DNA from: an uncultured Gemmatimonadota bacterium
GTDB lineage: Bacteria; JAAXHH01
Length of the DNA stretch: 64,000 nucleotides
Assembly: GCA_951812955.1 (NCBI GenBank)
Contig: OX638340.1
Location: 224,001 to 288,000, forward strand
Direction: 5' to 3'
Positions 3,061-59,686 of this stretch are shown here, one piece after another. The notes beneath the pieces are model-generated. The model was not told the origin of the DNA. It saw only the letters and a list, made by a program, of their open reading frames with translations, and did not search any database. A program made the position numbers and the translations under genes. Numbering within the stretch: position 1 is the first letter of the stretch; each line of letters begins with the position of its first letter.

Positions 3061-3501
3061 ATGGTTAACTTCCTGGGTTCATACACCTACACCGTGGACC
3101 ACAAAGGCCGGGTCAATGTCCCTGTGAAGTTTCGCAAGCACATCCGGACCGACGAGGACGACACGCTGATCATCACGCGGGGACTCGATGGATGTCTTTT
3201 CGTCTATCCAATCGACGAATGGGAACAGATCGACACCCGATTGCGAGAACTGCCCGTCACAAGGCAGAACACGCGGATCTTCATCAGGATGCTCTCGTCG
3301 GAGGCCGTGGCAGTCTCCATGGACAAGCAGGGTCGTATCGCCCTTCCCAGGCAGCTGATCGAACGCGCCGGCATTGAAACGGAAGTACTGATCATCGGAA
3401 CGCTTGACCACTTTGAACTCTGGAGTCCCGGGGAGTATGAGAAAGTAATGAACGAATCGGGACATACATACGAAGAGATCGCGGAGTCCCTGTTCGTTTG
3501 A
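3061..3501 (+). CDS. mraZ: transcriptional regulator MraZ
   Basis: Two tandem MraZ/SpoVT-AbrB-like halves, each with the DxxxR signature (TVDHKGRVNVP; SMDKQGRIALP). First gene of the dcw cluster. Confidence 0.9.
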   Translation: MVNFLGSYTYTVDHKGRVNVPVKFRKHIRTDEDDTLIITRGLDGCLFVYPIDEWEQIDTRLRELPVTRQNTRIFIRMLSSEAVAVSMDKQGRIALPRQLIERAGIETEVLIIGTLDHFELWSPGEYEKVMNESGHTYEEIAESLFV

Positions 3502-4511
3502 TGCTTTCCACCCATGCGGCTCCGTTAAATCACGGAATGATCATGGGTCTGGCAGACAAGTACAATCATGTTCCCGTTCTTGCGGGGAAGGTAGCCGAGA
3601 TGCTCGTCTGGAACACTTCCGGCACATATGTAGACGGTACAATCGGCGGAGGCGGTCACGCGCGCGCCATACTGGAGCGGCTTGGCGAATCCGGACGGTT
3701 GATCGGGCTGGACAGGGATTCCGAAGCGGTCGGCGCGGCAGGTGCGCGGCTTGCGCGGGGAAGTACTCCTCGCGTGGAGATCCTGCAACGGGACTATACG
3801 GAGTTGGCGTCCGTGCTGGAAGCGAAACGCATCTCCCGGGTGGACGGACTGATTCTGGACCTTGGCATTTCGTCCTACCAGGTCGATACGCCTGATCGCG
3901 GATTTTCATTCCAGTCCGACGGTCCGCTCGACATGCGCATGGACCGGGGCAAGCCGTTGACCGCGGCTCATATCGTCAACGAAAGTTCCCGGGATGAACT
4001 CGAGCGGATCATACGGGAATACGGCGAGGAACGGCAGGCGCGCGGCGTCGCGAACGCGATCGTCAGAACCCGCGACAGGGCGCCGCTGACTTCCACCGCC
4101 AGGCTGGCTGATACGATCAGGTCCGCGGTCCGCCGCAGATGGGCGGTCAAGTCCTGCGCCCGGGTGTTCCAGGCACTAAGAATCGCCGTCAACCAGGAAC
4201 TGGACAAATTGAAATTGGTTTTGGATACCATGCTTCCCCTCCTGAGCAACCGGGGTCGTTTCGGTATCATATCCTATCATTCACTGGAAGATCGACTGGT
4301 CAAGCGGACATTCGAAACCTGGGCATCGGACTGCATTTGTCCGCCCGGCTTTCCACAGTGCGTCTGCCAGCACAGGCGCGTTGCCGTGCTACATACGAAA
4401 CGGGCCGTCGTGGCCTCCCGTGAAGAAGTCGCGAAAAACCCGCGGGCGCGAAGCGCCAGGTTCCGGATGATTGAACGTTTGCCCGACGATCAACACGCAC
4501 ACTGTAATTAA
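3498..4511 (+). CDS. rsmH: 16S rRNA (cytosine1402-N4)-methyltransferase RsmH/MraW. The start is uncertain: TTG at 3498, ATG at 3501 or at 3537.
   Basis: HVPVL and GTxGGGGH motifs, then SYQVD and DMRMD motifs typical of RsmH. It overlaps the mraZ stop codon. Confidence 0.85.
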   Translation: MMLSTHAAPLNHGMIMGLADKYNHVPVLAGKVAEMLVWNTSGTYVDGTIGGGGHARAILERLGESGRLIGLDRDSEAVGAAGARLARGSTPRVEILQRDYTELASVLEAKRISRVDGLILDLGISSYQVDTPDRGFSFQSDGPLDMRMDRGKPLTAAHIVNESSRDELERIIREYGEERQARGVANAIVRTRDRAPLTSTARLADTIRSAVRRRWAVKSCARVFQALRIAVNQELDKLKLVLDTMLPLLSNRGRFGIISYHSLEDRLVKRTFETWASDCICPPGFPQCVCQHRRVAVLHTKRAVVASREEVAKNPRARSARFRMIERLPDDQHAHCN

Positions 4512-4976: not shown

Positions 4977-7040
4977 ATGGTCGCGAAATCCTGTATGCGC
5001 AGACTGACCCTCCTGGCCGTAGTCGGAGTGGTACTGTGTGCAGGTCTCGGGATTCGTATCGCGCTAATTCAGATTCGCGACGGCGAGGCCTACAGGCAGC
5101 GGGCGCGTGACCAACAGCACCGGGTGGTCACCATCGACCCCCGCCGGGGCCGTATCTTCGACCGCAACCGTAACACGCTGGCGCTGAGTGTCGAGTTCGA
5201 CTCCTTCGGTATCCAGGATCTCGACCGGGACCGGTACGGCCCCTCCGATATCGGAAACCTGGCCGTTCAGCTTTCCCAGATCACCGGCGAAGATCCCCAG
5301 CATATCATCGACCGGGTTTCCGAGACCTCCGACTTCAGGTATTTGGTCCGCTGGGTGAATCCCGAAACCAGTGAACGGATTAGAAGCCTCTCCACCTATC
5401 CCTTGTTCGAACCCTATATACGCACGCAAAAGGAAGCCAGGCGGGTCTATCCCTATCGGACCGCGGCCGGCCAGATACTGGGTTTCAGCGTAGATGGTTC
5501 CGGTCGGGCCGGGTTCGAAATGGAACACAACCAGCTGTTATCTGGTTTAGAAGGGTACAGCGTGGTGCAGATAGACGCTCAGCGACGGGCGTATTCGTGG
5601 CTTGATGCCTACCAGAATCCGGCGGAGAACGGCGCGGACGTCGTACTGACGATCGATATCGCTGCCCAGGTTGCCGCGGAAGAGGCGCTGGAGGAGGCGA
5701 TAGCGTGGCACGGGGCGCTCGGCGGTATGGTCATCATGATGGATCCGGCGAACGGCGACATACTGGCCATGGCCAGTTCTCCGGACTTCGATCCGAATAC
5801 ACCGGGACGGTTTCCATTCGAAGCCCAGAAGATCAGGCCGGTGGTGGATATCTACGAACCTGGGTCGACTTTCAAGATCGTAGCAGCGACCGCGGCCCTG
5901 GAGACCGGTGCGTTCTCTCTTGAGGACCGGATCGATACCAGTGCAGGCCGGATCGAGGTGGGCGCGCAGACGATATCAGACCACGAGGTCTACGACGAAC
6001 TGAGCGTACGGGAAGTCATCGAGCGGTCCAGCAACGTGGGTACCGTCAAAATCGCCCTGGCCCTCGGTGAAAAGGAGTTTTTCAAATACACCCGGGCCTT
6101 CGGTTTCGGCATGAAAACGGGCGTGGCCCTCCCGGGCGAGGCAAGAGGTATCCTGCATAAACCGGCCGTTTGGTCCATGTCCACGCTTCCCGCCATGGCC
6201 ATCGGCTACGGGGTTTCCGTCACCGGAGTACAACTCGCGACCGCCTATTGCGCCGTAGCCAACGGAGGCCTGCTCCTGCGACCTCGGATAATCAGATCCA
6301 TCCTGAGAAACGACGGTTCCGTGCAGACCGAACCGCGGTTTGTCGTTCGCAGGGTGATGAAAGAGGAGACCGCCGAAGCCTTACTGGGCGTATTCGCCGG
6401 AGTGGTGGACCAGGGTACGGGCACAAAGGCCGCGGTAACGGGTTTCAAGGTCGCGGGAAAGACCGGCACAGCCTGGAAGACCCGTGAGGACGGCAGGGGA
6501 TACACCAGGAATTACCGGTCGTCGTTTGCCGGGATGTTTCCGGCGAATGACCCGGAAATCGTCGTGCTCGTCATGATCGACGAGCCGAAGAAACGCGGCT
6601 TCTATGGCGGATCCGTGGCCGCGCCGGTTTTCAACAAAATCGTTCGCCGCCTCGTCCATCTGCCGGACGGACCCGTTGAGTCGGTTCCCGAATCCGATGA
6701 CGGCCTGCCCCTTCACCTGGCCTCCATCAAGCCTGGTTCGTCCTCGGGCAGCAGACCGCAGGGTTCTGCTACGGCATCGGGAGGACCGATGACTGGAGAC
6801 TTACTGCAGCTTGGCGGCCACTGGGAAATCGAACGTCCCGGTACCGGGGCGGAACAGGCACCGGTGCCGCTTCCGTCGGTGACAGGCATGAGCGTTAGAG
6901 AAGCCGTAAGGACCCTGGCCGAACAGGGTATTGAAGCAACCATAGTCGGTAAGGGCTACGTCCGACGCCAGATTCCTTCACCGGGCCGCATGGTCTATCC
7001 CGGCGATCGATGCCTCATCGAATGTGGTCCCTACAACTAG
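4977..7040 (+). CDS. ftsI: peptidoglycan D,D-transpeptidase FtsI (class B PBP3) with a C-terminal Ser/Gly-rich linker and one PASTA domain
   Basis: N-terminal TM anchor. Transpeptidase motifs STFK (PGSTFKIV), SxN (SSNVG) and KTGT (AGKTGTA). C-terminal ...PLPSVTGMSVREAVRTLAEQGIEATIVGKGYVRRQIPSPGRMVYPGDRCLIE fits the PASTA fold. Confidence 0.85.
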   Translation: MVAKSCMRRLTLLAVVGVVLCAGLGIRIALIQIRDGEAYRQRARDQQHRVVTIDPRRGRIFDRNRNTLALSVEFDSFGIQDLDRDRYGPSDIGNLAVQLSQITGEDPQHIIDRVSETSDFRYLVRWVNPETSERIRSLSTYPLFEPYIRTQKEARRVYPYRTAAGQILGFSVDGSGRAGFEMEHNQLLSGLEGYSVVQIDAQRRAYSWLDAYQNPAENGADVVLTIDIAAQVAAEEALEEAIAWHGALGGMVIMMDPANGDILAMASSPDFDPNTPGRFPFEAQKIRPVVDIYEPGSTFKIVAATAALETGAFSLEDRIDTSAGRIEVGAQTISDHEVYDELSVREVIERSSNVGTVKIALALGEKEFFKYTRAFGFGMKTGVALPGEARGILHKPAVWSMSTLPAMAIGYGVSVTGVQLATAYCAVANGGLLLRPRIIRSILRNDGSVQTEPRFVVRRVMKEETAEALLGVFAGVVDQGTGTKAAVTGFKVAGKTGTAWKTREDGRGYTRNYRSSFAGMFPANDPEIVVLVMIDEPKKRGFYGGSVAAPVFNKIVRRLVHLPDGPVESVPESDDGLPLHLASIKPGSSSGSRPQGSATASGGPMTGDLLQLGGHWEIERPGTGAEQAPVPLPSVTGMSVREAVRTLAEQGIEATIVGKGYVRRQIPSPGRMVYPGDRCLIECGPYN

Positions 7041-7090
7041 CCGATTCATCGTTCATGAGGGTGAGGACGACGGCATAGAGGGTCAAGGCG

Positions 7091-8635
7091 TTGAAACAGC
7101 TTTCGAAATTGCTGGCCGCGTTACCTCAAAAAAAAGTCATCAGCCGGCTGAATGCCTCGAACCGGGCGGACCGGGCGGACCGGGCAGTCCAGGCGGACTA
7201 TGCGGACCATGCGGACCATGCGGACCAGGAGATTGGAACCATAGTCCATGACTCGAGGTCCGTAGAGCCAGGCGATGTTTTTGTCGCGCTCCGCGAGCCT
7301 TCGGGCCGCGACGGCCGCAGGTACGCCCGCGACGCGGTTGCACGGGGCGCTTCGGTAGTGGTACAGGAAAGCGAGGAGGGCCTGGATGACGCGATCGTGA
7401 TAAGCGTTCCGGACACTTCCAGGGCTCTGGGCTTGATGGCCGCGGCGTACTACGGTCAGCCGGCGACCGACCTTTGTCTGATCGGTATTACGGGGACCAA
7501 CGGAAAGACGACCGTGTCATTGCTGGTCGAGGCTATCCTTCGGGAATGTGGCTGGGCCGTGGGCGGGATCGGCACGCTGGGCAGCCGGTTCATGGGCAAT
7601 GTGCTCGACTGGAAACTGGGCCACACCACGCCCTATCCGATGGAGCTGCACGGCACCCTGAGGAAGATCCGGGACCGGGGAGGCGAATGCGTCGTCATGG
7701 AAGTATCCTCTCACAGCCTGGTCTGGCAACGCCTGTCCGGCCTGCGATTCACCACGGGCGTCTTTACGAATCTCTCCAGGGAACACCTGGACGACCACAA
7801 GACCTTCGACGCTTACAAGGAAGCGAAGATGGTGCTTTTCTCGAAATACCTCGAGGAGAAAGGCAACGCCGTCCTGAACATGGACGATCCGGCCTATGTC
7901 CATTTCAAGGACGCATCGCGCGCACAGGTGCGATCATACGGACTGGACAAGAAGGCTGACGTCCGCAGGGCGGGTCCAATAGGATACTATGCTGACCGGA
8001 CCGTCATGAAAGTGCAGATTCAATCCGGTCCCCCTTTCAACGTGACCTTGCCTCTCCTGGGTCGTTTCAACGCGTACAACGCCCTGGCAGCCATATCCGT
8101 GGGGCTGGGATTCGGCATCGACTGTGAACTGATGAGCCGGGCCATGTCACGAGTCAGGGTACCCGGCCGGCTTGAGCGCGTCGAGGCTGGACAGCCTTTC
8201 AACGTGCTCGTGGATTTCGCCCATACGCCCGACGCACTCGGCGCCGTACTGTCCGCCTGCCGGGAATGGACCCGTGGAAGCCTGACCGTCGTATTCGGTT
8301 GCGGCGGGGACCGTGATCCCGGCAAGCGGCCGCTGATGGCCCGTGCGGCGTCCACCCACGCCGACGTAGTCATCGTGACGACCGACAACCCGAGAACGGA
8401 ACCGCCCGACCGGATCATAAGAGATATCGAGCCGGGTCTCCTGCCCCACGTCCGGTCCCATATAGTCCAGGACCGCGGCGAAGCGATCCATAAGGCCCTC
8501 AGCGATGCCGGCGAAGGAGACACCGTGCTGATCGCCGGAAGAGGAGACACGGCCTACCAGATCGTTGGCGAATCGCAAATCGAGTTCGACGACCGGTTCA
8601 AGGCCAGGGAATGTCTCGAGGCGCACTATGGATAA
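7091..8635 (+). CDS. murE: UDP-MurNAc-L-Ala-D-Glu:meso-DAP ligase MurE. Apparent TTG start; the N-terminus carries an (X-Ala-Asp)7 tandem-repeat insertion.
   Basis: Mur ligase ATP site GITGTNGKTT, the N-terminal DSRSVEPGDVFVAL motif, and a C-terminal region consistent with a DAP-adding MurE. Confidence 0.85.
   Translation: MKQLSKLLAALPQKKVISRLNASNRADRADRAVQADYADHADHADQEIGTIVHDSRSVEPGDVFVALREPSGRDGRRYARDAVARGASVVVQESEEGLDDAIVISVPDTSRALGLMAAAYYGQPATDLCLIGITGTNGKTTVSLLVEAILRECGWAVGGIGTLGSRFMGNVLDWKLGHTTPYPMELHGTLRKIRDRGGECVVMEVSSHSLVWQRLSGLRFTTGVFTNLSREHLDDHKTFDAYKEAKMVLFSKYLEEKGNAVLNMDDPAYVHFKDASRAQVRSYGLDKKADVRRAGPIGYYADRTVMKVQIQSGPPFNVTLPLLGRFNAYNALAAISVGLGFGIDCELMSRAMSRVRVPGRLERVEAGQPFNVLVDFAHTPDALGAVLSACREWTRGSLTVVFGCGGDRDPGKRPLMARAASTHADVVIVTTDNPRTEPPDRIIRDIEPGLLPHVRSHIVQDRGEAIHKALSDAGEGDTVLIAGRGDTAYQIVGESQIEFDDRFKARECLEAHYG
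7163..7225 (+). repeat. in-frame tandem repeat of 7 degenerate 9-bp units (cgggcggac x2, cgggcagtc, caggcggac, tatgcggac, catgcggac x2) inside the murE 5' region
   Basis: Read directly from the sequence. It encodes RAD-RAD-RAV-QAD-YAD-HAD-HAD. The other reading frames of the same stretch give Pro/Gly repeats, as expected for a nucleotide-level repeat. Confidence 0.9.
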
Positions 8636-10049
8636 CCGCAATGGGTCGGCGGCGCCCACGTTGCTGGAAATAGCCGATATCATGGGCGGGAGACTGCATG
8701 TATCCATCCCCGCGCTTGGTCACAGACGGATCACGGGCGTTTGTTCCGATACGCGGCGTATCGCGGAGGGCAACCTGTTCGTCGCGATTGCAGGTGAACG
8801 GTACGACGGTCACGATTTCGTGCCTGAAGCCATGCGCTCGGGAGCGTGTGCGTCGCTGGTTGCGGCCGATTGGCTCGCGGGTCGGCCGGACCGGGAGACT
8901 CCGGATGACGCGCGGATCGTCGTGCCGGAAGTACTTCCGGCCCTGCAGGCATTCGCCGGTTGGCACCGAAGACGATTCGATCTGCCGGTAATCGCGGTTA
9001 CGGGTTCCAGCGGGAAGACCACCACGAAGAACATGATGGCCGCCGTGCTGGGAGAGCGCTACAGGGTTTTCAAAACACCGGGGAACCTGAATAGCCAGCT
9101 GGGAGTCTCCGAATCGCTGTTCTCGCTGCACGAAGGCCACGGCGCGGCGGTACTTGAACTGGGTATGAACCGGGCAGGTGAACTGACCCGGCTGTCCCGA
9201 ATGACCTGTCCATCCGTTGGCGTGATTACCAATGTGGGGCCCGCGCATATCGAGTTTTTCGAATCGATCGAAGGAATCGCCCGGGCCAAGGGCGAAATTC
9301 TCGACAATCTGCCAGGGGCGGGAAGCGCGGTGCTAAACGCCGACGACCCCCTCGTCATGAAGCAGGCCGTTCGCAGTCCGGCGCGAGTCGTTACGTTTGG
9401 ACGCAGCGAGGGAGCCGACGTAAGGCTGGCAAGCGCAACGACCGCACTGACCGGATCGACTTTCGCCTTGTCGGATGGCGCATCCTTTCGAATAAACCTG
9501 TTGGGGGAACACCAGGTCATGAATGCAATGGCCGCCGTGGCGGTGGGCAGGATTTCGGGAATCGACGACCAGGACATCGCTCGCGCGTTGCGAAACTTGG
9601 ATCCCACGCCCATGCGCATGGAATACAGGAAGGTGGGCGCCGTGCACCTGATCGACGACACATACAATGCCAATCCGTCGTCGATGAAGGCGGCCCTGGA
9701 CACGCTGGCGACTGCCGGAGGCCGTAAACTGGTCGTCCTCGGGGATATGCTGGAACTGGGCGAACTGGGCATGGCGGCGCACAGGGAAATCGGAAAACGC
9801 GCCGCGGATGTGGCGGAACGGATCGTCACGGTGGGAGAACTGGCCCGCGAAATCGCCGGAGCCGCGATGCATGCGGGGATGCCGGCGTCGCGCGTCTCGT
9901 CCTGCCTTTCCAACGACGAGGCGGTCGCTGAGGTAATGGCGGGAATCGAAGCCGTCGACGTCATACTCGTCAAGGGATCGCGCGGCATGCGGATGGAAAC
10001 GATCGTTGAATCCCTGGAACTAGCACTGGGCCATACCGAAACGGAGTGA
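8628..10049 (+). CDS. murF: UDP-MurNAc-tripeptide:D-Ala-D-Ala ligase MurF
   Basis: ATG at 8628 overlaps the murE stop within ATGGATAA. Mur ligase P-loop VTGSSGKTTTK; overall MurF-like sequence. Confidence 0.85.
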   Translation: MDNRNGSAAPTLLEIADIMGGRLHVSIPALGHRRITGVCSDTRRIAEGNLFVAIAGERYDGHDFVPEAMRSGACASLVAADWLAGRPDRETPDDARIVVPEVLPALQAFAGWHRRRFDLPVIAVTGSSGKTTTKNMMAAVLGERYRVFKTPGNLNSQLGVSESLFSLHEGHGAAVLELGMNRAGELTRLSRMTCPSVGVITNVGPAHIEFFESIEGIARAKGEILDNLPGAGSAVLNADDPLVMKQAVRSPARVVTFGRSEGADVRLASATTALTGSTFALSDGASFRINLLGEHQVMNAMAAVAVGRISGIDDQDIARALRNLDPTPMRMEYRKVGAVHLIDDTYNANPSSMKAALDTLATAGGRKLVVLGDMLELGELGMAAHREIGKRAADVAERIVTVGELAREIAGAAMHAGMPASRVSSCLSNDEAVAEVMAGIEAVDVILVKGSRGMRMETIVESLELALGHTETE

Positions 10050-10053
10050 TTCC

Positions 10054-11196
10054 GTGTTACATCAGCGAATCGATCTTCCACTGCTGGTTTCATCCCTGCT
10101 CCTCCTGGGCGTGGGATCGGTCATGATTTACAGCGCGAGTTCAGCCGTTGCCGAAGAGATGTTTTCCGGCGACAGTGGTTTCTTCGTCAAACGCTACCTG
10201 GTCAGGTTGATTCTCGGAATCGTCATCCTGGTCCTGTTCGCCAGCCTGAATTACCAGAAACTCGGGAAGTGGTCCCCATTACTGGTTGCCGTCGGCATGG
10301 TGTTTCTCGTGCTCCTCTTTGTTCCCGGTATCGGCCTGACCATCCGGGGCGCGACCCGCACCTTGAGCATGTTCTCCACGACGATTCAGCCCGCGGAAGG
10401 GATCAAGGTCGCCCTGGTCATATACCTGGCCTACTGGCTGGACAGGCGCCAGAACGTCATGGACCGTTTCTTCATCGGATTTCTGCCCGGAATAGCGGTG
10501 GTCGCGGCAGCCTGCCTGCTGATTGTCCTGCAGCCGGATTATGGTACCGCGATCGTGCTTGCCGCAACCTCGTTCGCGATGCTCTACATCGGCCGCGCGC
10601 GGATGCTGCACCTGGCAAGCACCGTGGGAATCATGTTGCCGGTCCTTTTCTACAGACTGTATTCGTCGGCTCACAGCCGGCAGCGTCTCATGGCTTATTT
10701 CGATCGGCTTTTCGGCAATTCCGTCGATCAGTCCGTCAATCTGCAAGGTGCGGACTACCAACTGCAACAAGCGCTGATCAGTCTGGGTACAGGCGGCGTA
10801 TTTGGAAACGGTCTGGGACAAAGCCGTCAGAAGTTTCTGTTCCTTCCCGATCCCCACACTGACTTCGTGTTCGCGGTGATTGGCGAAGAACTCGGTTTTC
10901 TGGGGTCGATGGCGGTGCTGGGCCTCTTTGTCGTATTCGCCTGGAGGGGTTTCAGGGTCGCCCGCATGGCACCTGACACCTTCGGGTTTTTCCTGGCGTC
11001 CGGGCTTACTATTCTTATCACACTGCACGTGCTGGTGAACATCGGTGTGGTGACGGGCATGCTCCCCACCACGGGGCTTCCGCTACCCTTCCTGAGCTAT
11101 GGCGGGTCCTGGCTGCTTTTCTGCATGATGAGCATCGGGATACTGCTGAACATTTCCAGAATGACATACCGGTGCCAGAGACTGAAATATGACTGA
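10054..11196 (+). CDS. ftsW: SEDS-family peptidoglycan glycosyltransferase / lipid II flippase FtsW
   Basis: Ten-TM SEDS protein with the conserved PDPHTDFVFAVIGEELGFLG loop and C-terminal LPLPFLSYGGS. It immediately follows murF, so mraY and murD are absent here. Confidence 0.85.
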   Translation: MLHQRIDLPLLVSSLLLLGVGSVMIYSASSAVAEEMFSGDSGFFVKRYLVRLILGIVILVLFASLNYQKLGKWSPLLVAVGMVFLVLLFVPGIGLTIRGATRTLSMFSTTIQPAEGIKVALVIYLAYWLDRRQNVMDRFFIGFLPGIAVVAAACLLIVLQPDYGTAIVLAATSFAMLYIGRARMLHLASTVGIMLPVLFYRLYSSAHSRQRLMAYFDRLFGNSVDQSVNLQGADYQLQQALISLGTGGVFGNGLGQSRQKFLFLPDPHTDFVFAVIGEELGFLGSMAVLGLFVVFAWRGFRVARMAPDTFGFFLASGLTILITLHVLVNIGVVTGMLPTTGLPLPFLSYGGSWLLFCMMSIGILLNISRMTYRCQRLKYD

Positions 11197-12607
11197 TCGG
11201 CAAAATACGGACATTGCATGCCGTCACGCGCATTTCATCGGCATAGGCGGAATCGGAATGAGCGGTCTGGCTGAACTGATGCTCGAATTTGGTTACGAAG
11301 TGAGCGGATCGGACCTGCGGCGAACACAGCTGACGGACCGGCTCAGCGGTCTCGGAGCGTCCGTCTTCCACAGCCACGACCCGGGCAACGCGGCGGGTGC
11401 GGACCTGATCGTGTACTCTTCCGCAATTCCGGAGGACAATCCCGAACTCGAAGCGGCCCGTAGGCATGGCGTACGTTTGGTCCGCCGCGCCGAACTGCTC
11501 GGTATACTGATGCGCGGGGCACGAAGTATCGCCGTGGCGGGCGCTCACGGCAAGACGTCCACGTCGGCGATGATCGTAAACGTACTGGCCGCCGCGGGCC
11601 TGGATCCGACCGCCGCCATAGGCGGGATCATGACGGAGAACGGATCCAACGTCCGGCACGGCAGCGGATCGTGGATGGTCGCGGAAGCCGATGAATATGA
11701 TCGTTCGTTCCATGCGCTGGCTCCGACTACGGCAGTAATCACATCGGTGGACGCAGACCACCTGGAATACTACGGATCGCAGGAAGCCATAGATGCAGCC
11801 TTCACTACTTTCGCCCATCTCGTACCCGAGGACAGGCCGTTGTTCGTGTGTGCCGACGACCCGGGCATCCGCAGGATCAGTCCCGCGCTGCGCCGACGGC
11901 TGGTGACCTACGGCCTTTCCGGTCACGCCTGCATCCGGGCAGACCGGGTGGCGACCGAAGGCTGGAGCATTTCCGCCGAAGTATTCGTGCGGGACGTTCC
12001 GGCCGGCCGGCTGGTTTTGCCTCAGCCCGGCGAGTGCAACCTGGTCAATGCCCTGGCGGCCATCAGTGTGGCCGACTACCTCGAAATACCCGTCGAGCGG
12101 ACCCTGGCGGCCCTGGCGGATTACCGGGGACTGAGGAGACGTTTCGAAGTACTCGGAAGGATTCAAGGTGTGGAGGTAGTGGACGACTATGCCCACCATC
12201 CCGTCGAAATCGAGGCGGCGTTGCTCGCCCTGTCAAACGCGGGAGCCCGGCGCATGTTCGTCATATTCCAACCCCACCTCTTCAGCCGAACGCAGCATCT
12301 GTGCCGCGAATTCGGGCGCGTACTCGGGCGGTTTCCCGCATATCGGAAGATCGTTACGGACGTGTACCCCTCCAGGGAAACGCCGCGGGAGGGGGTTACG
12401 GGTGAGTTGATCGTCAGGGCGTCGAGCGCATTCGGAGGAGGCGTCGCGTACATGCCGGACAAGAACCGCATCGCGACCACCCTGGTGGACGATCTCGAGA
12501 AAGGGGACATGGTGCTGACGCTCGGCGCGGGGGACATCGACGAAGTAGGACGGCAGGTTTGCGAACTACTTAGGAAACGCGGGGTCAGGTCCCATGCATG
12601 TATATGA
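11189..12607 (+). CDS. murC: UDP-N-acetylmuramate:L-alanine ligase MurC
   Basis: N-terminal HFIGIGGIGMSGLAE (the MurC Rossmann signature) and Mur ligase P-loop AGAHGKTSTS. It overlaps the ftsW stop within ATGACTGA, so there is no murG between ftsW and murC. Confidence 0.9.
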   Translation: MTDRQNTDIACRHAHFIGIGGIGMSGLAELMLEFGYEVSGSDLRRTQLTDRLSGLGASVFHSHDPGNAAGADLIVYSSAIPEDNPELEAARRHGVRLVRRAELLGILMRGARSIAVAGAHGKTSTSAMIVNVLAAAGLDPTAAIGGIMTENGSNVRHGSGSWMVAEADEYDRSFHALAPTTAVITSVDADHLEYYGSQEAIDAAFTTFAHLVPEDRPLFVCADDPGIRRISPALRRRLVTYGLSGHACIRADRVATEGWSISAEVFVRDVPAGRLVLPQPGECNLVNALAAISVADYLEIPVERTLAALADYRGLRRRFEVLGRIQGVEVVDDYAHHPVEIEAALLALSNAGARRMFVIFQPHLFSRTQHLCREFGRVLGRFPAYRKIVTDVYPSRETPREGVTGELIVRASSAFGGGVAYMPDKNRIATTLVDDLEKGDMVLTLGAGDIDEVGRQVCELLRKRGVRSHACI

Positions 12608-13520
12608 AATGCTCAGTGGGTCGATCGCTTCCGAACGGCTGCGGTGCGACGAGGGCCTTGATCGGCATTCTACTTACCGGGTCGGAGGGCCGGCGGACGT
12701 GATGTGCCTGCCTCGAACCCGATCGGAACTGCTGGATGTCGTCACCGCTGCAAGCGTGCGCGGGATACCCTGGCTGGTGGTGGGAAACGGGAGCAATATC
12801 CTCTTCTCGGATGACGGATTCCGCGGTCTGGTGATCAAGATAAGAGGCGCGGTCCCGGTGGAGGGGACGCTGTGGCAATTGGCGCAGGAAGGTGATTTCA
12901 TCCGGGCGGGCGCGGGCGTCAGCCTGCCTCGACTCGCCAGGTCGGCGGCGGCCGCGGGACTGAGCGGACTGGAGTTCTGCACCGGGATACCCGGCGTGGT
13001 TGGCGGATCCATCCGGGGCAACGCCGGCGCTCACGGGAGTGATCTGGGCGCTGTAGTGGAGTCTGTGGAAATGATTCGGCCATCCGGTGACATCGTGACG
13101 ATCAGGGCTTCGGAGGCCGGGTTTTCCTATCGGGAAAGTGAAATTGAGCCGGACAGCATCGTGACCGGGGCGGTGTTCAGGCTGACGCCGGATGAACCGG
13201 AGAACGTGCAAGAACGCATAAGGGTCTTCACCGAATACAGAAAGCGCACGCAGCCGTCCTCCGATCAGAGTGCCGGGTGCATGTTTAAAAACCCGGTGGG
13301 CGACAGTGCCGGAAGGCTGATCGACGCGGCCGGGTGCAAAGGACTTCAGGTCGGCGGATCGAGGGTGTCCGAAATCCACGGTAATTTCGTAATCAACCTG
13401 GGTGGTGCAACGGCGTCGGACGCGTTGCGGTTGATCGACCTGGTTCGCGAACGGGTCTTCGAGCGAACCGGCGTAGCCCTCGAACTCGAGGTGCGCGTGA
13501 TGAAATCGGGCGTGGTATGA
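12594..13520 (+). CDS. murB: UDP-N-acetylenolpyruvoylglucosamine reductase MurB
   Basis: FAD-binding PCMH-type domain (YRVGGPADVM...GNGSNILFSD) and the C-terminal MurB domain (GCMFKNP, RVSEIHGNFVIN). Confidence 0.85.
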   Translation: MHVYEMLSGSIASERLRCDEGLDRHSTYRVGGPADVMCLPRTRSELLDVVTAASVRGIPWLVVGNGSNILFSDDGFRGLVIKIRGAVPVEGTLWQLAQEGDFIRAGAGVSLPRLARSAAAAGLSGLEFCTGIPGVVGGSIRGNAGAHGSDLGAVVESVEMIRPSGDIVTIRASEAGFSYRESEIEPDSIVTGAVFRLTPDEPENVQERIRVFTEYRKRTQPSSDQSAGCMFKNPVGDSAGRLIDAAGCKGLQVGGSRVSEIHGNFVINLGGATASDALRLIDLVRERVFERTGVALELEVRVMKSGVV

Positions 13521-14359
13521 ATTCGAACAGGATGCGTTTCACATTCCGTTTGATGACCGGACTTGCGATTGTCCTGCTCGCCTCAGGTACGACGGCCGGA
13601 CTGGTCATGGGAGGCCTGGCGCTGTCCAGGTGGACTGAGAACTCGCCGGTTTTCAATCTGGACGCCATCGTCGTCGAGGGGAACAGGATCGCTGGCAAGG
13701 AGGACATCATCCGGGTTTCCGGCCTCGAAATGGGCAAGAACATCTGGTCGGCCGACCTCGAGGAGACCGGACGGCGACTCATGCTCGACACGCGGTTCGA
13801 TCGGGTCGCGCTGAGCAGGAGGTTACCCGGTACCGTCGTCGTTCGGGTGAAGGAACTGCAGCCCATCGCCATTGTACAGCTGGATCGCCTCTACGGAGTC
13901 TCCGAACGCGCCGAGCTGATCCCGCTTTCACCGGGAAACGGGTTGCCGGACCTTCCCGTGATTACCATCGACGCTTCAGGTTTCCGGCCGGAGTCAGGCG
14001 CCGCGGAATCGCGGGACCTTCATTTCGAAACGCTCAGGGAAGCCATGCTGGTCGATCCCGAGATGGGCCGCGCCCTCTACCTCATGCGGGTGCTCAGAGC
14101 GATGTCTCCGGGGATGTACGACGAGTTATCCGAGATTCACATGTCCAGACCGAATGACCCGATCGCCTACATGGTGGAAGGCGGATTGGCCATACGGTTC
14201 GGAACGGGACACTACCCCCGGAAGATCGAGATGCTCAGACGAACTGTGGAGCGGTTGGAAGCCGACGCCATCAGGACCCGGTTGATCGATCTGAGGTTCA
14301 AGGACCAGGTTATCGTCCGCCCGGTTGTATCCAGCCGGTCCCTGGACAGGCGTTCGTAG
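13517..14359 (+). CDS. ftsQ: cell division protein FtsQ (TM plus POTRA domain)
   Basis: Single TM helix then a POTRA-like segment (IVVEGNRIAGKEDIIRVSGLEMGKNIWSADLEE) and a FtsQ beta domain. It occupies the position between murB and ftsA and overlaps the murB stop (ATGA), so no ddl is present. Confidence 0.75.
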   Translation: MNSNRMRFTFRLMTGLAIVLLASGTTAGLVMGGLALSRWTENSPVFNLDAIVVEGNRIAGKEDIIRVSGLEMGKNIWSADLEETGRRLMLDTRFDRVALSRRLPGTVVVRVKELQPIAIVQLDRLYGVSERAELIPLSPGNGLPDLPVITIDASGFRPESGAAESRDLHFETLREAMLVDPEMGRALYLMRVLRAMSPGMYDELSEIHMSRPNDPIAYMVEGGLAIRFGTGHYPRKIEMLRRTVERLEADAIRTRLIDLRFKDQVIVRPVVSSRSLDRRS

Positions 14360-14377: not shown

Positions 14378-15598
14378 ATGGCCCGTGAATGTATAGCTGC
14401 ACTCGACCTGGGCACGACCAAAACGGTCGTGTTGATCGGCGAGATGACTGACGCCGGCCTCCGGATCCTGGGCGAGGGTACGTGCCGGTCCCAGGGCCTC
14501 CGGCGAGGCGTCCCGGTCAATATGGACGAAGCTGCCCGTTCGATCGCGGAGACGATTCAGGTCGCGGAACAGGCGGCCGAAGCCAGGATAAGCGAGGTCT
14601 ATGTCGGGTGTTCCGGCGATCACATCGAAAGTGTCAACAGCAGAGGCGTCGTGGCCATTTCGTCCGACGGGGGACGGGGCGTGACGCGTAAGGACGTTGC
14701 TCGCGCCTTCGATTCCGCGACGGCCCTGAGGATTCCCATGGACCGCCAGGTCATCCATGTGCTCGCACAGGACTATATCGTGGACGACCAGTGCGGTATC
14801 CGCGACCCGTGCGGCATGTCCGGCGTCCGGCTTGAAGTGCTGGTGCACATCGTGACCGGGGCGATCACCTCGTTGCGGAATGTACGCAATTGCATCATGC
14901 AGTCCGGAATTCAAGTCCGGGAAATCGTCCTCGATTCGCTCGCCGCGAGCCAGGCGGTGCTCACATCCGACGAAAAAGAGCTGGGTGTCGTTCTCCTCGA
15001 CCTCGGCGGGGGCACCACGAACATCGCGCTGTTCCAAGACGGCAGCATCCGGCATTCGTCGGTTATTCCCGCCGGAGGAATCAACCTTACGAACGATATC
15101 GCGATCGGTCTCCGCACCCCGCATGAAGATGCCGAACGAATAAAGCGGCACTACGCGAGCGCGGTATATGTCCGCTCGGAAAGGGACAACATGATTGAAG
15201 TACCCGGGGTCGGCGGACGCGAGTCGCGTATGGTGACGCGGGAGGAATTGGCGTTCGTGGTCGGCCCACGGATCAAGGAGCTTCTGGTCCTCGCTCGGGA
15301 GACGATCAGGAACAGTGGATTCGAACACCTGGTCCGCACCGGTATCGTTATCACAGGGGGCGGTGCGCTGATGCCGGGTATTGCGAAACTGACGGAACAG
15401 GTCTTCGGCATGTCCGCGAAAATCGGTGCGCCGGAGGAAGTTCACGGCCTGGCCGATGATGGGAACGCCCCCCTGTACGCAACCGGTGTAGGCTTGTTGC
15501 GCCACGCAGCGGACAGCTCGTCAGGAAAAAAGTGGCACCATGATACGGAAGGAGGATGGCTGGATCGTGTGAGAAGCCGGATCGTAGCCATGTTGTAG
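14378..15598 (+). CDS. ftsA: cell division protein FtsA
   Basis: Actin/Hsp70-fold motifs IAALDLGTTKTVVLIGE, DLGGGTTNIALF and VITGGGALMPGI. Lies directly upstream of ftsZ. Confidence 0.9.
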   Translation: MARECIAALDLGTTKTVVLIGEMTDAGLRILGEGTCRSQGLRRGVPVNMDEAARSIAETIQVAEQAAEARISEVYVGCSGDHIESVNSRGVVAISSDGGRGVTRKDVARAFDSATALRIPMDRQVIHVLAQDYIVDDQCGIRDPCGMSGVRLEVLVHIVTGAITSLRNVRNCIMQSGIQVREIVLDSLAASQAVLTSDEKELGVVLLDLGGGTTNIALFQDGSIRHSSVIPAGGINLTNDIAIGLRTPHEDAERIKRHYASAVYVRSERDNMIEVPGVGGRESRMVTREELAFVVGPRIKELLVLARETIRNSGFEHLVRTGIVITGGGALMPGIAKLTEQVFGMSAKIGAPEEVHGLADDGNAPLYATGVGLLRHAADSSSGKKWHHDTEGGWLDRVRSRIVAML

Positions 15599-15666: not shown

Positions 15667-16839
15667 ATGTCTACTTTCGACTTTGATGCGGAACCGGGAT
15701 TGTTTGCCCGCATGAAAATAATCGGCGTAGGCGGCGCAGGAAAGAACGCCGTCAACCACATGGTTGAAATCGGCGTCCCGGGCGTTGATTTTCTAGTCGC
15801 CAACACCGACGCGCAGGACCTGGCGGGTTCCAATGTGAAGTACAAGATACAGCTGGGACAGGAAACTACCCGTGGACTCGGCGCCGGCGCTAATCCCGAC
15901 GTGGGCCGCAAAGCCGCGGAGGAAAGCCGGGACGAAATCGCGGAACACCTGACCGACATCGACATGGTGTTCATCACGGCGGGTATGGGGGGAGGCACGG
16001 GAAGCGGCGCCGCGCCGGTGATTGCCCAGATTGCGAAGGAACTGGGTGTGCTGGCCGTCGGCGTCGTGACCAAGCCGTTCGCGTTCGAGGGACCCAAGCG
16101 TGCGGCGAACGCCGAGACCGGGCTCTCAGCTTTGAAGGAACATGTAGATACGGTGGTCATCATACCAAACCAGAAACTGAAGGAGGCCGTGAGCCGCAAC
16201 ACCACATTCAAAGACGCGCTCAAGGTGGCCGACGAAGTCCTGTTGCAGGCCACGCGCGGCATTTCGGACCTGGTTACACTGCCCGGATTGATCAATGTCG
16301 ATTTCGCCGATATCAGGACGACCATGGAGAACAAGGGCGAAGCCCTGATGGGAACCGGCGAAGCCGATGGCGACAAGCGTGCGCTGGAAGCGGCGGAACG
16401 GGCCATGCGGCACCCGTTGCTGGCGGACATGGACATCGACGGGGCCAAGGATATTCTGCTCAATATATCGGGCGGCCAGGACATGACCCTGTTCGAAGTG
16501 GAAGAGGTGATGACCACGGTTCAGGCGGCCGCGGGACATACCAACATCATCATGGGTACGGTCCTCGACGAAAGCCTCGACGGCAAGGTCCGCGTAACGG
16601 TGATCGCCACGGGGCTGGACCAGTCGATGGCTGCCCCTGACGATATGTTGACGCGTAACATCCTGAAGTTTCAGCCGGACCGCCCTAACGAACTGGAAAC
16701 GCCGGCCTTTCAGCGTGTCAAGCGCAACGGGTTCGATACGGAAGAAGTGACCGTCGGCGACCCTTCTGACGACGCGGTCGACAACAACGGGCTGGACGTG
16801 CCGACCTACATGCGTCGCAGGCGGGCTTTCGGTTCGTAG
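15667..16839 (+). CDS. ftsZ: cell division GTPase FtsZ
   Basis: Tubulin signature GGGTGSG (GMGGGTGSGAAPV), N-terminal KIIGVGGAGKNAVNHM, and a conserved C-terminal tail (DVPTYMRRR). Confidence 0.95.
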   Translation: MSTFDFDAEPGLFARMKIIGVGGAGKNAVNHMVEIGVPGVDFLVANTDAQDLAGSNVKYKIQLGQETTRGLGAGANPDVGRKAAEESRDEIAEHLTDIDMVFITAGMGGGTGSGAAPVIAQIAKELGVLAVGVVTKPFAFEGPKRAANAETGLSALKEHVDTVVIIPNQKLKEAVSRNTTFKDALKVADEVLLQATRGISDLVTLPGLINVDFADIRTTMENKGEALMGTGEADGDKRALEAAERAMRHPLLADMDIDGAKDILLNISGGQDMTLFEVEEVMTTVQAAAGHTNIIMGTVLDESLDGKVRVTVIATGLDQSMAAPDDMLTRNILKFQPDRPNELETPAFQRVKRNGFDTEEVTVGDPSDDAVDNNGLDVPTYMRRRRAFGS

Positions 16840-26091: not shown

Positions 26092-26925
26092 ATGCATCCC
26101 ATACTTTTTGAGATCGGCCCACTGACTGTACGAACCTACGGCCTTTTGCTTGCCGTATCCTTCATGGTTGGGATTCTCCTGGCGCTTAGACGATCCAGGG
26201 CCCGTGGCTTGAACCAGAACAAGATGGTCAACATGAGCCTGCTCATCATGCTCACGGGCATCGTCGGCGCCAGGATCATGTATGTCATACCCCACTGGAA
26301 CGAGTTCAGTGCGAACCCCCTCGATATCATCAGTCCCTTTCAAAGCTCCGGTTCGATCGGTCTGACCGGATTGACCCTGTACGGCGGATTCATCGCGGCG
26401 GTCCTGGCATCCATACTGTACCTTCGCATGAACAGGCTGTCGGTATGGAAGGCCTGCGACGCCTTTGCACCGAGTATCGCCCTCGGTATCGGGATCAGCC
26501 GCGTCGGTTGCTTTATGAACGGCTGCTGTTTCGGACTTCCCACCGAGTCGGCCCTGGGTGTAGTCTTCCCGGCGTTCAGCGCGGCGGGCTCTTTCTATCC
26601 GGACGTCTCGCTTCATCCCGCCCAGCTGTACAACGCCGTACTGGGCTTCAGCCTCTTCGGCCTGTTGATGTGGCTGGACCGTAAGCCTCGATTCGACGGA
26701 TTCCTCTTTGCCATGCTGCTGATTACAGAACCCATCACTCGGTTTTTCGTCGATCTGTTCAGGTACTATGAATCCAGCATGACGCTGGGCAACCTGGGCG
26801 GCGCGGTCCTTTCGGTAAACCAGGGGATCAGTATCGTTTTGTGCGGCGTTGGGTTCCTCCTCCTGGGGTGGCTCAGAAACCGCGCCCGGCGACGTTCGGA
26901 TCGGAGTCGGCCCCGTCGTGCGTGA
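26092..26925 (+). CDS. lgt: prolipoprotein diacylglyceryl transferase
   Basis: N-terminal FEIGPLTVRTYGLLLAVSFMVG, and the Lgt signature region with conserved G and H residues (MYVIPHW...RVGCFMNGCCFG). Confidence 0.85.
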   Translation: MHPILFEIGPLTVRTYGLLLAVSFMVGILLALRRSRARGLNQNKMVNMSLLIMLTGIVGARIMYVIPHWNEFSANPLDIISPFQSSGSIGLTGLTLYGGFIAAVLASILYLRMNRLSVWKACDAFAPSIALGIGISRVGCFMNGCCFGLPTESALGVVFPAFSAAGSFYPDVSLHPAQLYNAVLGFSLFGLLMWLDRKPRFDGFLFAMLLITEPITRFFVDLFRYYESSMTLGNLGGAVLSVNQGISIVLCGVGFLLLGWLRNRARRRSDRSRPRRA

Positions 26926-26958
26926 CGTAATCCGGTACGGCGGTCCATTTTCTTTCGC

Positions 26959-27062
26959 GCTTCAGTCCAGCCATCATCCGTGCTGACGCGGGCCGATGAT
27001 CCGCCGGAACGCTTCAGTCCAGCCATCATCCTTGCTGACGCGGGCCGTTGATCCGCCGGAAC
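26959..27062. repeat. perfectly tandem 2 x 52-bp direct repeat (2 mismatches) in the lgt-comF intergenic region
   Basis: Unit gcttcagtccagccatcatccgtgctgacgcgggccgatgatccgccggaac spans 26959-27010, and the second copy spans 27011-27062. A perfect 7-bp/5-nt-loop hairpin, tctcgca-caata-tgcgaga, follows at 27076-27094. Confidence 0.9.
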
Positions 27063-27204
27063 GATTACGCCGGTATCTCGCACAATATGCGAGAAACGGG
27101 CTGCGGTTATAGACTGATATAAGAAAGGAACCGCTGGAAACAGGTTTCGCTTCGACGGACGCGCCGGTCTTCGGTGATCCCCTTCCTATACGAATCGATC
27201 GTGC

Positions 27205-57617: not shown

Positions 57618-59588
57618 CTACCAGTCGTGTATCATGTGGCCCTGTCCGGGATAGAACAAGGCATCCACAAAGAACGACAGAACGATACCCAGCGTGTAAC
57701 CGAGCAGGACGCCAAGGAAGAACCGCTGACCCGTGCGGTAGGTGCTGGTCCCGACCTTCAGCAGAATGAACTTGGCGAGCCATGCGAGGAAGACGGACAG
57801 GATCGAGTCCCGGATATTGCTGGCGAAACAAATGGCGAAACCCACCGGGGCGAGGGGCCACCAGACCAGCCAGTGCCGGAGTTTCAGCAGCAACAGGAAG
57901 GTCGCCGCGCCAGCCGCCATGAACCAGGGCTCGTTCTGACCCAGGGACAGCGGGTTCTTCATCCAGGTTACGATCTCGTCGTAGTAGTTCTTGTTGAGCC
58001 CGTCGAACGCCCCGCCTCCGAAGTTATATGCTCCGATCGCATAGCCCGACTGTATCGAGTAAGCCAACGCCGTGACCATGCTGACGAGAAAGGTGGCGGC
58101 GAGTACGAGCAGCAACCCTTTCTTCCTCGGCCAGAATCCGTCCGCCAGGCGATCTGCCAGCACGACCGAACCCATACCCAGCCCGCGCCAGTTCCGCGCA
58201 TACGCGCTGGCCAGGCCCAGTGCCGTAAGACTTGGCGCCGATACGTTCCCTGAACCCAGGGACAGCACCGTGATCTGGTGCGCGTTCACGGGCAAATCGA
58301 GGAACACCACCCCTGTTTCGGCGATTACCTTTGTCGTGCCGAAGTATAGAATGAACAGAAATGCCAGGAACACCGCCATCACCGAAAACGCCAGGCCGGA
58401 CTGGTACAGCCATGCGCAGATAAATACGGATCCAAGCAGGAATCCGATCACGGCGGTCCTGTAGGACACGAGTTCCTTTGTATCGTCCAGTCCGGAGTCC
58501 CGCCCAATCGCTTTCTTGACTACGCCCGCCAGGTGCCGCCTGGCGGCCCAGAGACTGTAACCCACGTACACCAGGAATCCGCCGAAAAACTGTGCGTTGA
58601 CGCCGCCGCTGCCGCCGGGACCGCTGCTGGCCGTGTTGAGTCCTATGTAATTCAGTGCGCCGATTTCGAGCAGCCCCAGCATGAAGAAGACCCAGATGCT
58701 CAGCAGGATATCTACGTTGATAAAGTAGCCGAAGCCGAGCATGTAGGGGCTGATACGCAGGGGAATGGAGGGGAACATCGGACTCAATTGGAGCGGAGTC
58801 TCGAAGAAGGTGCCGACGGGGAGCTGCGGCACGATATGGGCGAAGGACACGATATTCCAGAGTGCGATGGCCAGCGCGAGGATGAACCCGATCTGGAACA
58901 GGCGGTCGTAGACGAGTCCTGGCCAGCGGCCGGGAGACTGGTCCCCGGCTATGAGTTCGAGGGGTACCTGGACGAGGGGAAAAGTTAGCCGCTCGTACTC
59001 CACCCACTGTTTTCTGAATATGGTAGCCACGCAGGCGCCGACGACGAATATCGCGACGAAAAAGCTCATCCACCAGGCGACGGGGATGATCCACGGGGAC
59101 CAGGGTATGGCGCCTCCCGGAGGCAGTCCTTCGTAAAACCACCCCATGGCGTTGTTCTGGTTGCTCGCCACGAGCCATTCCGGCAGAAAGGGGTGGAAGA
59201 GCTCCACCCACTGGTTTTCCGGCTGGGCGAAGTAAAAGGGCGTCGATATGATGGTCAGGAAGTACGACACGAAGGCCTTGCCGGGTATGAGGCTCGAAAT
59301 CAGCAGGATGCAGAAGATCAGCGCGAGTTCTCTGCCGGTGAATGCGGCCCGTTGGGACATACCGCGTACCAGGGGATTGTACACGAAGGTGACGAGCAGA
59401 AAGAGCGCCAGGGCGGAAATGGGCAGGTGGGCCACCGACATGCGGGACGTGTGCAGGATATAGGTCCCGTACGTCACCCAGATGTTGAGGATGATGGCCA
59501 GGACCAGTCCCGTGGCGAGTGACCTCGACGTGATCACGGAGGCTGGCGGGGATTCCCTTGTCGGTATATGCTTGGTTGTGTCAGTCAA
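57618..59588 (-). CDS. large polytopic membrane protein (656 aa, about 14 or more TM helices), family unknown. TTG start.
   Basis: Hydrophobic segments throughout, aromatic-rich, with a Gly-rich loop SSGPGGSGG. No transporter signature recognised. Confidence 0.6.
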   Translation of the reverse strand: MTDTTKHIPTRESPPASVITSRSLATGLVLAIILNIWVTYGTYILHTSRMSVAHLPISALALFLLVTFVYNPLVRGMSQRAAFTGRELALIFCILLISSLIPGKAFVSYFLTIISTPFYFAQPENQWVELFHPFLPEWLVASNQNNAMGWFYEGLPPGGAIPWSPWIIPVAWWMSFFVAIFVVGACVATIFRKQWVEYERLTFPLVQVPLELIAGDQSPGRWPGLVYDRLFQIGFILALAIALWNIVSFAHIVPQLPVGTFFETPLQLSPMFPSIPLRISPYMLGFGYFINVDILLSIWVFFMLGLLEIGALNYIGLNTASSGPGGSGGVNAQFFGGFLVYVGYSLWAARRHLAGVVKKAIGRDSGLDDTKELVSYRTAVIGFLLGSVFICAWLYQSGLAFSVMAVFLAFLFILYFGTTKVIAETGVVFLDLPVNAHQITVLSLGSGNVSAPSLTALGLASAYARNWRGLGMGSVVLADRLADGFWPRKKGLLLVLAATFLVSMVTALAYSIQSGYAIGAYNFGGGAFDGLNKNYYDEIVTWMKNPLSLGQNEPWFMAAGAATFLLLLKLRHWLVWWPLAPVGFAICFASNIRDSILSVFLAWLAKFILLKVGTSTYRTGQRFFLGVLLGYTLGIVLSFFVDALFYPGQGHMIHDW

Positions 59589-59620
59589 TCAGGTCTCGCA
59601 TCGGTCTATGGATACCGGAT

Positions 59621-59686
59621 CAGCAGGCCGTCGCGGCGTATGTCCTTGCGTCAGCAGGCCGTCGCGGCGTATGTCCTTGCGTCAGG
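59621..59686. repeat. tandem 2.1 x 31-bp direct repeat (cagcaggccgtcgcggcgtatgtccttgcgt)
   Basis: Copies at 59621-59651 and 59652-59682 are identical, and a partial third copy follows. The repeat abuts the sulfatase stop codon and lies upstream of the membrane-protein start. Confidence 0.9.

Follow-up and report, generated by a model that had tools for sequence, protein, structure and literature searches.

The essential cell-wall gene murE of an uncultured bacterium carries a fast-evolving tandem repeat close to its 5' end. We analyzed a stretch of 64,000 nucleotides from an uncultured Gemmatimonadota bacterium (assembly GCA_951812955.1, contig OX638340.1, positions 224,001 to 288,000; hereafter the window), in which murE contains seven contiguous 9-bp units placed in the reading frame. 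Across related genomes the same site varies widely in length, mostly in steps of three residues, and the remainder of the protein keeps its length. In our judgement this is likely to be a slippage-driven, self-perpetuating, in-frame variable-number tandem repeat (VNTR) in a housekeeping gene of a marine host-associated bacterium, tolerated by the enzyme that it interrupts.

A nine-base-pair tandem repeat in murE

The sequence and a unit script delimit seven head-to-tail units at 7163-7225 of the plus strand (Table 1). They are codon-aligned, with TCG AAC as the 5' and CAG GAG ATT as the 3' flank, and correspond to residues 25-45 of the 514-aa open reading frame (ORF), where they read RAD RAD RAV QAD YAD HAD HAD. 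An earlier inspection of the letters, here called the sequence-only reading, had described seven in-frame 9-bp units at the 5' end of murE, and the sequence, the unit table and Tandem Repeats Finder (TRF) all bear this out. Its formula of seven (R/Q/Y/H)-A-D triplets fits six units and fails for the third, which is R-A-V. Likewise, the term 'perfectly tandem' is right for the head-to-tail arrangement but not for the units themselves, which differ from each other; identical neighbors are found only in the pairs 1-2 and 6-7, and these look like recent duplications. What appear to be two degenerate older units precede the array, and a partial eighth unit follows it. Codon alignment with relatives suggests that the first of the older ones, RLN, is the counterpart of an ancestral single unit CGG CCG GAC (RPD).

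TRF places the array at 7161-7229 with period 9, 7.7 copies, 85% matches and a score of 75, and reports no other array of at least five copies in the window. Among 100 dinucleotide-preserving shuffles of the window the top score was 69, so that a score of 75 was reached in none (0/100), and none held at least five copies of a period of at least 6 (0/100). The murE repeat therefore exceeds what is expected by chance. Compared with the ground state described below, the tract of the window is longer by 8 triplets (24 aa), and the extension of about 24 aa proposed earlier turns out to be exact: the protein has 514 aa and its unexpanded orthologues 490 aa.

Variation of the tract among relatives

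The nearest relatives are metagenome-assembled genomes (MAGs) labelled Gemmatimonadota or Latescibacterota. Among them is JAAXHH01..., after which the GTDB placeholder phylum JAAXHH01 is named; members of this phylum come from sponge tissue and marine metagenomes (PMC11382960, PMC13200403). The window shares 84-85% identity with this group, which suggests that it is a member. A metagenome scan returned three loci only, one of them a distant homologue. Loci read at the DNA level are referred to below by L numbers and public proteins by P numbers.

The repeat tract occurs at the same codon across the whole clade and is extremely variable. Among 81 same-clade MurE sequences there are 53 distinct tracts with lengths of 14-50 residues, of which 51 differ from a 14-residue ground state by multiples of 3 aa; the other two are in frame as well. 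Across eight clusters at 90% identity the length of the N-terminal helix does not change and the stretch after the IVHDSR motif has 458 aa in all full-length members, with three members with shorter C-terminal parts as exceptions, and hence the length differences are confined to the tract. The cluster to which the window belongs shows nine different tracts among the ten MurE members listed. In a neighbor-joining tree built from the MurE core, expansion is lacking in every outgroup, and nearest neighbors can differ by 10 units, as in P0167 with 50 and P0166 with 20 residues. An alignment of MurE orthologues thus finds the repeat tract clade-wide and lacking from the outgroups and from one single-unit lineage.

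This single-unit sister lineage represents the ground state, TVIG-RPD-QEIRT-IVHDSR, which holds one unit (GRPDQEI) and a C-G-G-like start of a second. At the DNA level it reads GGC CGG CCG GAC CTG/CAG GAA, and in the unexpanded locus L016 GGC CGG CCG GAC CTG GAA. All 14 members of the lineage (14/14) have 490 aa and show no length variation, as expected if instability needs two or more copies.

Close pairs of genomes reveal extreme turnover of the tract between near-identical strains. The window and L002 share about 95.8% DNA identity over 7.5 kb, with a 36-bp difference at the tract as the sole indel, and L018 and L019 (97.5-98.8% DNA identity) are separated by a single gap of 90 bp, again at the tract. 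The alignment of the window with L001 (97.7% identity) has no gaps, yet the array differs at 9/63 positions where 1.4 are expected (P about 1e-5) and is the most divergent 63-bp stretch of the alignment. Both arrays have equal numbers of units in a different order, consistent with a single gain, a single loss and a point change. The sequence-only reading had proposed a length-variable linker at a slippage hotspot; this proposal is strongly supported, since all length variation among the 81 relatives falls in the tract and near-identical strains differ in length at this place alone.

The units of the relatives comprise the types RAD, QAD, HAD, YAD, RTD, QAG, HTD, RPD and RAA. They are hydrophilic, with A in 67% of units at position 2 and D in 58% at position 3. 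The CAG GA(A/G) that closes the tract in the window is also found in L001, L013, L002, L003, L004 and L008, and other relatives end in CAG GCA, GAG GCA, CAG GTA or CAT GAA, or in CTG GAA in the case of L016. Units beyond chance, a codon-aligned length that is a multiple of three and a copy number that varies between conserved flanks are together the marks of an in-frame coding VNTR.

The enzyme and the place of the tract in its structure

Judged by its sequence, ORF 7091-8635 is an intact meso-diaminopimelate (meso-DAP)-type Mur ligase, namely MurE, the UDP-MurNAc-L-Ala-D-Glu : meso-DAP ligase. Its product contains the Pfam domains PF01225 Mur_ligase (48-121), PF08245 Mur_ligase_M (133-337) and PF02875 Mur_ligase_C (359-485), and a sequence search matched MurE chains in the PDB at E about 1e-80. 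Its best named matches are DAP ligases. In an alignment of 85 sequences the residues G132, T134, G135, T136, N137, G138, K139 and T140 of the ATP-binding P-loop (GxxGKT) are invariant together with K246 of the middle domain, and so is the DNPR motif (D432, N433, P434, R435), which we take from E. coli MurE to be linked to meso-DAP specificity. Similarly, Foldseek superposes the AlphaFold model on solved MurE structures (2XJA, 4C13, 1E8C) with template modelling (TM) scores of 0.82-0.92. Invariant catalytic motifs and a predicted fold that matches solved MurE suggest that the integrity of the enzyme is retained.

The AlphaFold model of the unexpanded protein P0012 shows a strand at residues 15-17, a five-residue turn (GRPDL) and a second strand at 23-24, all with a predicted local distance difference test (pLDDT) of 95-96. 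The model of the window MurE contains the same strands at 15-17 and 47-48, parted by a 29-residue excursion. Residues 21-40 of this excursion have a pLDDT of 50-55 and are the only weak segment of a model with an overall mean pLDDT of 92.4. Solved MurE chains align mostly from residue 44-46 on, and one M. tuberculosis chain from residue 24. Since the strands are shared with the P0012 model, the confidence is low in between and the solved chains mostly align after this part, the expansion is predicted to form the tip of a surface turn before the first conserved strand of the domain that binds uridine diphosphate (UDP), the IVHDSR strand. A surface turn of this kind could plausibly accept extra residues.

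Translation start and the A8 run

A translation-initiation block stands directly ahead of the repeat-bearing ORF. It includes a Shine-Dalgarno-like GAGGG at 7078-7082, 8 nt ahead of the TTG start. GAGGG core, spacing and TTG start are kept in L001-L009, L016, L018 and L019, and the sequence farther upstream diverges; L017 has GTG at the codon where the others start with TTG. There is no in-frame ATG, GTG or TTG between the repeat and the DSR motif, and even homologues with 45% identity retain the N-terminal helix (M-x-Q-L-S-x-L-L). From the conserved upstream start, the lack of a start between repeat and DSR motif and the conserved helix we infer that the repeat lies inside the translated region. 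No frameshifted (off) allele was found in 16 orthologous loci read at the DNA level.

The starts of murE are often miscalled in the clade (P0003, P0008, P0125, P0132, P0135-P0138, P0141 and P0143), the call falling either on an ATG upstream or on a TTG further downstream within the tract, where the true start is TTG or GTG. Protein P0141, which begins inside the tract, was considered as an N-terminal truncation and rejected, as at the DNA level the ORF is intact and begins with GTG at the usual start position, the protein having been miscalled.

The run of eight A lies inside the murE ORF, 37 nt past the start codon, and begins two bases further upstream than the 7130-7137 given in the sequence-only reading (Table 1). 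One such run is found in the window where 0.45 are expected, and at least one occurs in 32/100 shuffles. The nearest relatives L001, L013 and L002 have A7G at this place, and the more distant loci read there have A3-A5. In sequence terms, A8 is a strain-specific synonymous change of AAG to AAA at chance level. As a significant or conserved slippery site it was therefore rejected.

Origin of the tract and alternative explanations

In-frame coding VNTRs and their origin by slippage are well established (PMC10174486, PMC12817950, PMC6868369). We found no report of a repeat in MurE in the literature.

The ancestor of the tract would have been one unit, CGG CCG GAC with CAG G behind it, coding for a tight turn G-R-P-D-Q that connects two short N-terminal strands in domain 1 of MurE. 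A first duplication of this 9-bp turn-coding unit would create a substrate for misalignment, and copies misaligned in replication or recombination would lead to rapid gain and loss of units. With a unit of three codons every change in copy number would stay in frame, and changes that are not multiples of three would be lethal or strongly deleterious in murE, so that only in-frame alleles would be seen. Point mutations may have diversified the units into the RAD, QAD, HAD, YAD, RTD, QAG and RPD types. The enzyme appears to tolerate 1 to at least 13 units because the site is predicted to be a surface turn that precedes the first conserved strand. The product would be a hydrophilic loop of variable length built of (R/Q/H/Y)-(A/T/S/P)-(D/G/N) triplets, which is probably disordered and most likely without specific function. 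We infer both slippage as the mutational mechanism and the functional neutrality of the tract.

Some points weigh against this account. Almost all lineages of the clade, which span protein identities of roughly 77-98%, have kept the tract, and its hydrophilic composition is maintained at the frequencies given above; given this persistence and composition, some selection may be keeping or shaping the loop. Tract turnover is drawn from comparison between genomes, and the structural placement from predicted models. Furthermore, frameshifted alleles would escape full-length protein calls, as databases under-sample broken genes, which makes their absence weaker evidence.

The same observations feed the idea of a functional, selected loop whose length or charge might tune MurE activity, access of the UDP substrate in domain 1 or contacts to partners such as MurF or further proteins of cell-wall synthesis, so that changes in copy number might act as heritable graded variation. 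We consider this unlikely. Besides the retention of the tract in almost all lineages and its consistent richness in hydrophilic and small residues, the idea can draw on its position about 10 residues ahead of the conserved DSR strand of the UDP-binding domain and on MurE-MurF assemblies present in the PDB (8f5d). However, the number of units ranges from 1 to 13 among strains with near-identical cores, their sequence is unconserved (RAD, QAG, HTD, RPD and RAA types), model confidence is low in this region alone, the expansion is missing from the single-unit lineage and from all outgroups, and neither a partner nor a phenotype is on record. In a more specific form, which we hold to be quite improbable, selection would keep the repeat as a tunable element whose copy number alters loop length and charge beside the UDP-binding domain. 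If true, it would give rise to heritable, quickly reversible differences in peptidoglycan-precursor flux or partner-enzyme assembly, and an essential cytoplasmic enzyme of host-associated bacteria would then be subject to a graded contingency mechanism.

Explanations at the level of DNA, expression or assembly fare worse. The repeat lies less than 140 nt from the start codon and the heptamer GCGGACC is mildly enriched in the window (36 against 21.5 expected), with 5/36 copies inside the array; repeated regulator sites in the murE 5' end or an mRNA structure governing murE translation could be imagined on these grounds, but seem very unlikely. Predicted RNA folding is no better than in shuffles (z = -0.65 for 7150-7240, z = -0.45 for 7041-7260), which removes RNA structure at the murE 5' end from consideration. 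A promoter or terminator role was rejected as well, as the repeat and its surroundings showed nothing promoter-like and the only terminator-like match, at 7453-7469, lies well downstream. Moreover, units vary between lineages and always keep the codon register, the period is 9 rather than the helical 10-11, and copy number is unconstrained. The sequence-only reading had also raised an error-prone site that modulates the start or expression of MurE, that is, a switch in which slippage in A8 or in the repeat toggles murE or shifts its start. Homopolymers of eight or more can slip, and A8 lies inside the ORF close to the start. Yet murE, present once and of the essential type, belongs to a division and cell-wall (dcw) cluster, the 9-bp unit never alters the frame, no downstream start is available, A8 is a chance-level and synonymous variant, and all alleles examined at the DNA level are in frame with TTG or GTG at the same start codon. 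The proposal is thus unsupported and a switch extremely unlikely; neither the shifts in frame or promoter spacing nor the off alleles of a phase-variable contingency locus were found. An assembly artefact or chimera has an equally slim chance of explaining the array. Repeats do cause assembly errors (PMC6868369), and in the related short-read MAG L005 (CAZZNP010000021.1, 1815-1914) a scaffold gap of exactly 100 N falls inside the MurE tract, with identical CGGCCTGAC (RPD) units on both sides, as a result of which the public protein P0014 is truncated to 425 aa. Because L005 breaks inside the tract, long homogeneous arrays are an assembly hazard; the window is unaffected. Its array of 63-67 bp is below the typical short-read length of about 150 bp, the exact window protein is on record on a 3.81-Mb contig, one related allele is carried by two different records (L001 and L013), and dozens of other assemblies, including 3.9-Mb chromosomes, carry in-frame tracts at the same codon. 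On these grounds an artefact was rejected for the window array.

The murE tract leaves the understanding of MurE function unchanged. It shows that rapid evolution of an in-frame repeat is possible even within a core, essential cell-wall enzyme, provided that the repeat is located in a permissive surface turn, and the stable single-unit sister lineage offers a clean natural experiment. The tract also marks an insertion-tolerant position of MurE that is useful for tagging, and the locus can serve as a strain marker for an uncultured clade, as a short amplicon between the conserved flanks ATAGAGGGTCAAGGCGTTGA and ATAGTCCATGACTCGAGG. Finally, it warns that in this clade the tract leads both gene calls of murE and short-read assemblies astray, as in the miscalled starts and the 100-N gap.

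Genomic setting and other repeats in the window

As expected for MurE, the gene is found in the dcw cluster between ftsI and murF (Table 1). The likely start codon of murF, an ATG at 8628, makes murF and murE overlap by 8 nt at the murE stop, and relatives have 473-aa murF gene calls with the same 8-nt overlap.

Table 1. Positions in the window of murE, its repeat tract and the genes of the dcw cluster.
Feature	Position	Strand	Sequence or product	Basis or remark
mraZ	3061-3501			dcw cluster
rsmH	3498-4511			dcw cluster
ftsI	4977-7040	+	class B penicillin-binding protein with PASTA domain	upstream neighbor of murE; Pfam
Translation-initiation block	7075-7093	+	ATAGAGGGTCAAGGCG, then TTG start	conserved in relatives
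murE coding sequence	7091-8635	+	514 aa, TTG start, TAA stop, intact	Pfam, PDB matches, motifs, models
A8 run	7128-7135	+	within CAA AAA AAA (Q13 K14 K15)	incidental
Two degenerate older units	7145-7162	+	CGG CTG AAT (RLN), GCC TCG AAC (ASN)	codon alignment with L016 and other relatives
Unit 1	7163-7171	+	CGGGCGGAC	RAD
Unit 2	7172-7180	+	CGGGCGGAC	RAD
Unit 3	7181-7189	+	CGGGCAGTC	RAV
Unit 4	7190-7198	+	CAGGCGGAC	QAD
Unit 5	7199-7207	+	TATGCGGAC	YAD
Unit 6	7208-7216	+	CATGCGGAC	HAD
Unit 7	7217-7225	+	CATGCGGAC	HAD
Partial eighth unit	7226-7229	+	CAGG	start of ancestral Gln-Glu codons closing the tract
murF	8628-10049	+		downstream neighbor of murE; Pfam
ftsW	10054-11196			dcw cluster
murC	11189-12607			dcw cluster
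murB	12594-13520			dcw cluster
ftsQ	13517-14359			dcw cluster
ftsA	14378-15598			dcw cluster
ftsZ	15667-16839			dcw cluster

The order at 8628-12607 is murF, ftsW and murC. The genes mraY, murD and murG, which are usually found around these three in dcw clusters, are absent from the stretch and must be elsewhere. At the head of the cluster, about 100 nt upstream of mraZ, a near-consensus promoter consists of TTGACA (2909-2914), a 17-nt spacer and TAGTAT (2932-2937). Three GTGGG motifs follow it at 2939, 2949 and 2959 with a period of 10 (2909-2963 in total), and the arrangement resembles the direct-repeat operator to which MraZ binds at the head of dcw clusters. The 90%-identity protein cluster of the window MurE (cluster 7) also contains neighboring 687-aa FtsI proteins; a clustering artefact or an ORF fused in some gene call may be the reason.

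The window contains further repeats. A perfect 31-bp tandem duplication of 2.1 copies, TCAGCAGGCCGTCGCGGCGTATGTCCTTGCG, occupies 59620-59685 between the minus-strand ORFs 57618-59588 and 59682-61031, and each copy opens with a GCG-TCA junction that matches the end of the upstream ORF. At 26958-27063, in the intergenic gap after ORF 26092-26925, a 52-bp unit occurs twice with 96% identity, and each copy includes short inverted segments (CATCATCC ... GATGATCC). A weak 9-bp array of 4 copies with 74% matches, CGGACCGGG-like, is found at 61254-61289 in a Pro/Gly/Asp-rich linker of the minus-strand ORF 61071-62351. It was considered as kin of the murE tract and rejected on account of its low match rate, the unrelated ORF and the lack of an x-A-D pattern.

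Comparison with known repeat systems

Bacterial VNTR and minisatellite loci in coding regions, of the kind used for typing by multiple-locus VNTR analysis (MLVA), such as Xanthomonas minisatellites (PMC10174486) and copy-number variants of M. tuberculosis (PMC12817950), share with murE the short head-to-tail units, an intragenic unit that is a multiple of three and a copy number that varies between close strains, and slipped-strand mispairing is their accepted cause. The M. tuberculosis examples that PMC12817950 emphasizes are repeats in promoters and alter expression, unlike the murE tract. The tract further differs from these loci in that it sits in an essential cytoplasmic peptidoglycan ligase, and its variable site is common to a whole uncultured clade, beyond one species, with no typing scheme or phenotype attached.

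Phase-variable contingency loci, as in Haemophilus, Neisseria and Campylobacter, are homopolymers or repeats of 2-7 nt that lie in surface or restriction genes. Like the murE tract they show repeat-mediated hypermutation at a fixed place close to a gene's 5' end; in murE, however, the unit has 9 bp, the frame is not switched, the gene codes for a housekeeping enzyme and no off alleles are seen. For yeast, Verstrepen et al. reportedly described in 2005 that tandem repeats within genes give rise to functional variability in cell-wall genes (listed in PMC6868369). There, too, in-frame changes in copy number lead to graded protein length, but the yeast repeats belong to surface adhesins with measured phenotypes, whereas MurE is intracellular and has no phenotype on record.

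Fixed N-terminal extensions of MurE, as in M. tuberculosis (2WTZ/2XJA, 535 aa) and in the plastid MurE-like protein PAP11 (about 770 aa), indicate that the region before the DSR strand tolerates extra residues. To our knowledge these extensions are neither repetitive nor length-polymorphic. They are found at the extreme N-terminus, whereas the murE tract is an internal, repetitive and polymorphic insertion in a turn. Set beside these systems, the murE tract reveals no new mechanism and is a clade-wide hypervariable loop in an essential cytoplasmic enzyme.

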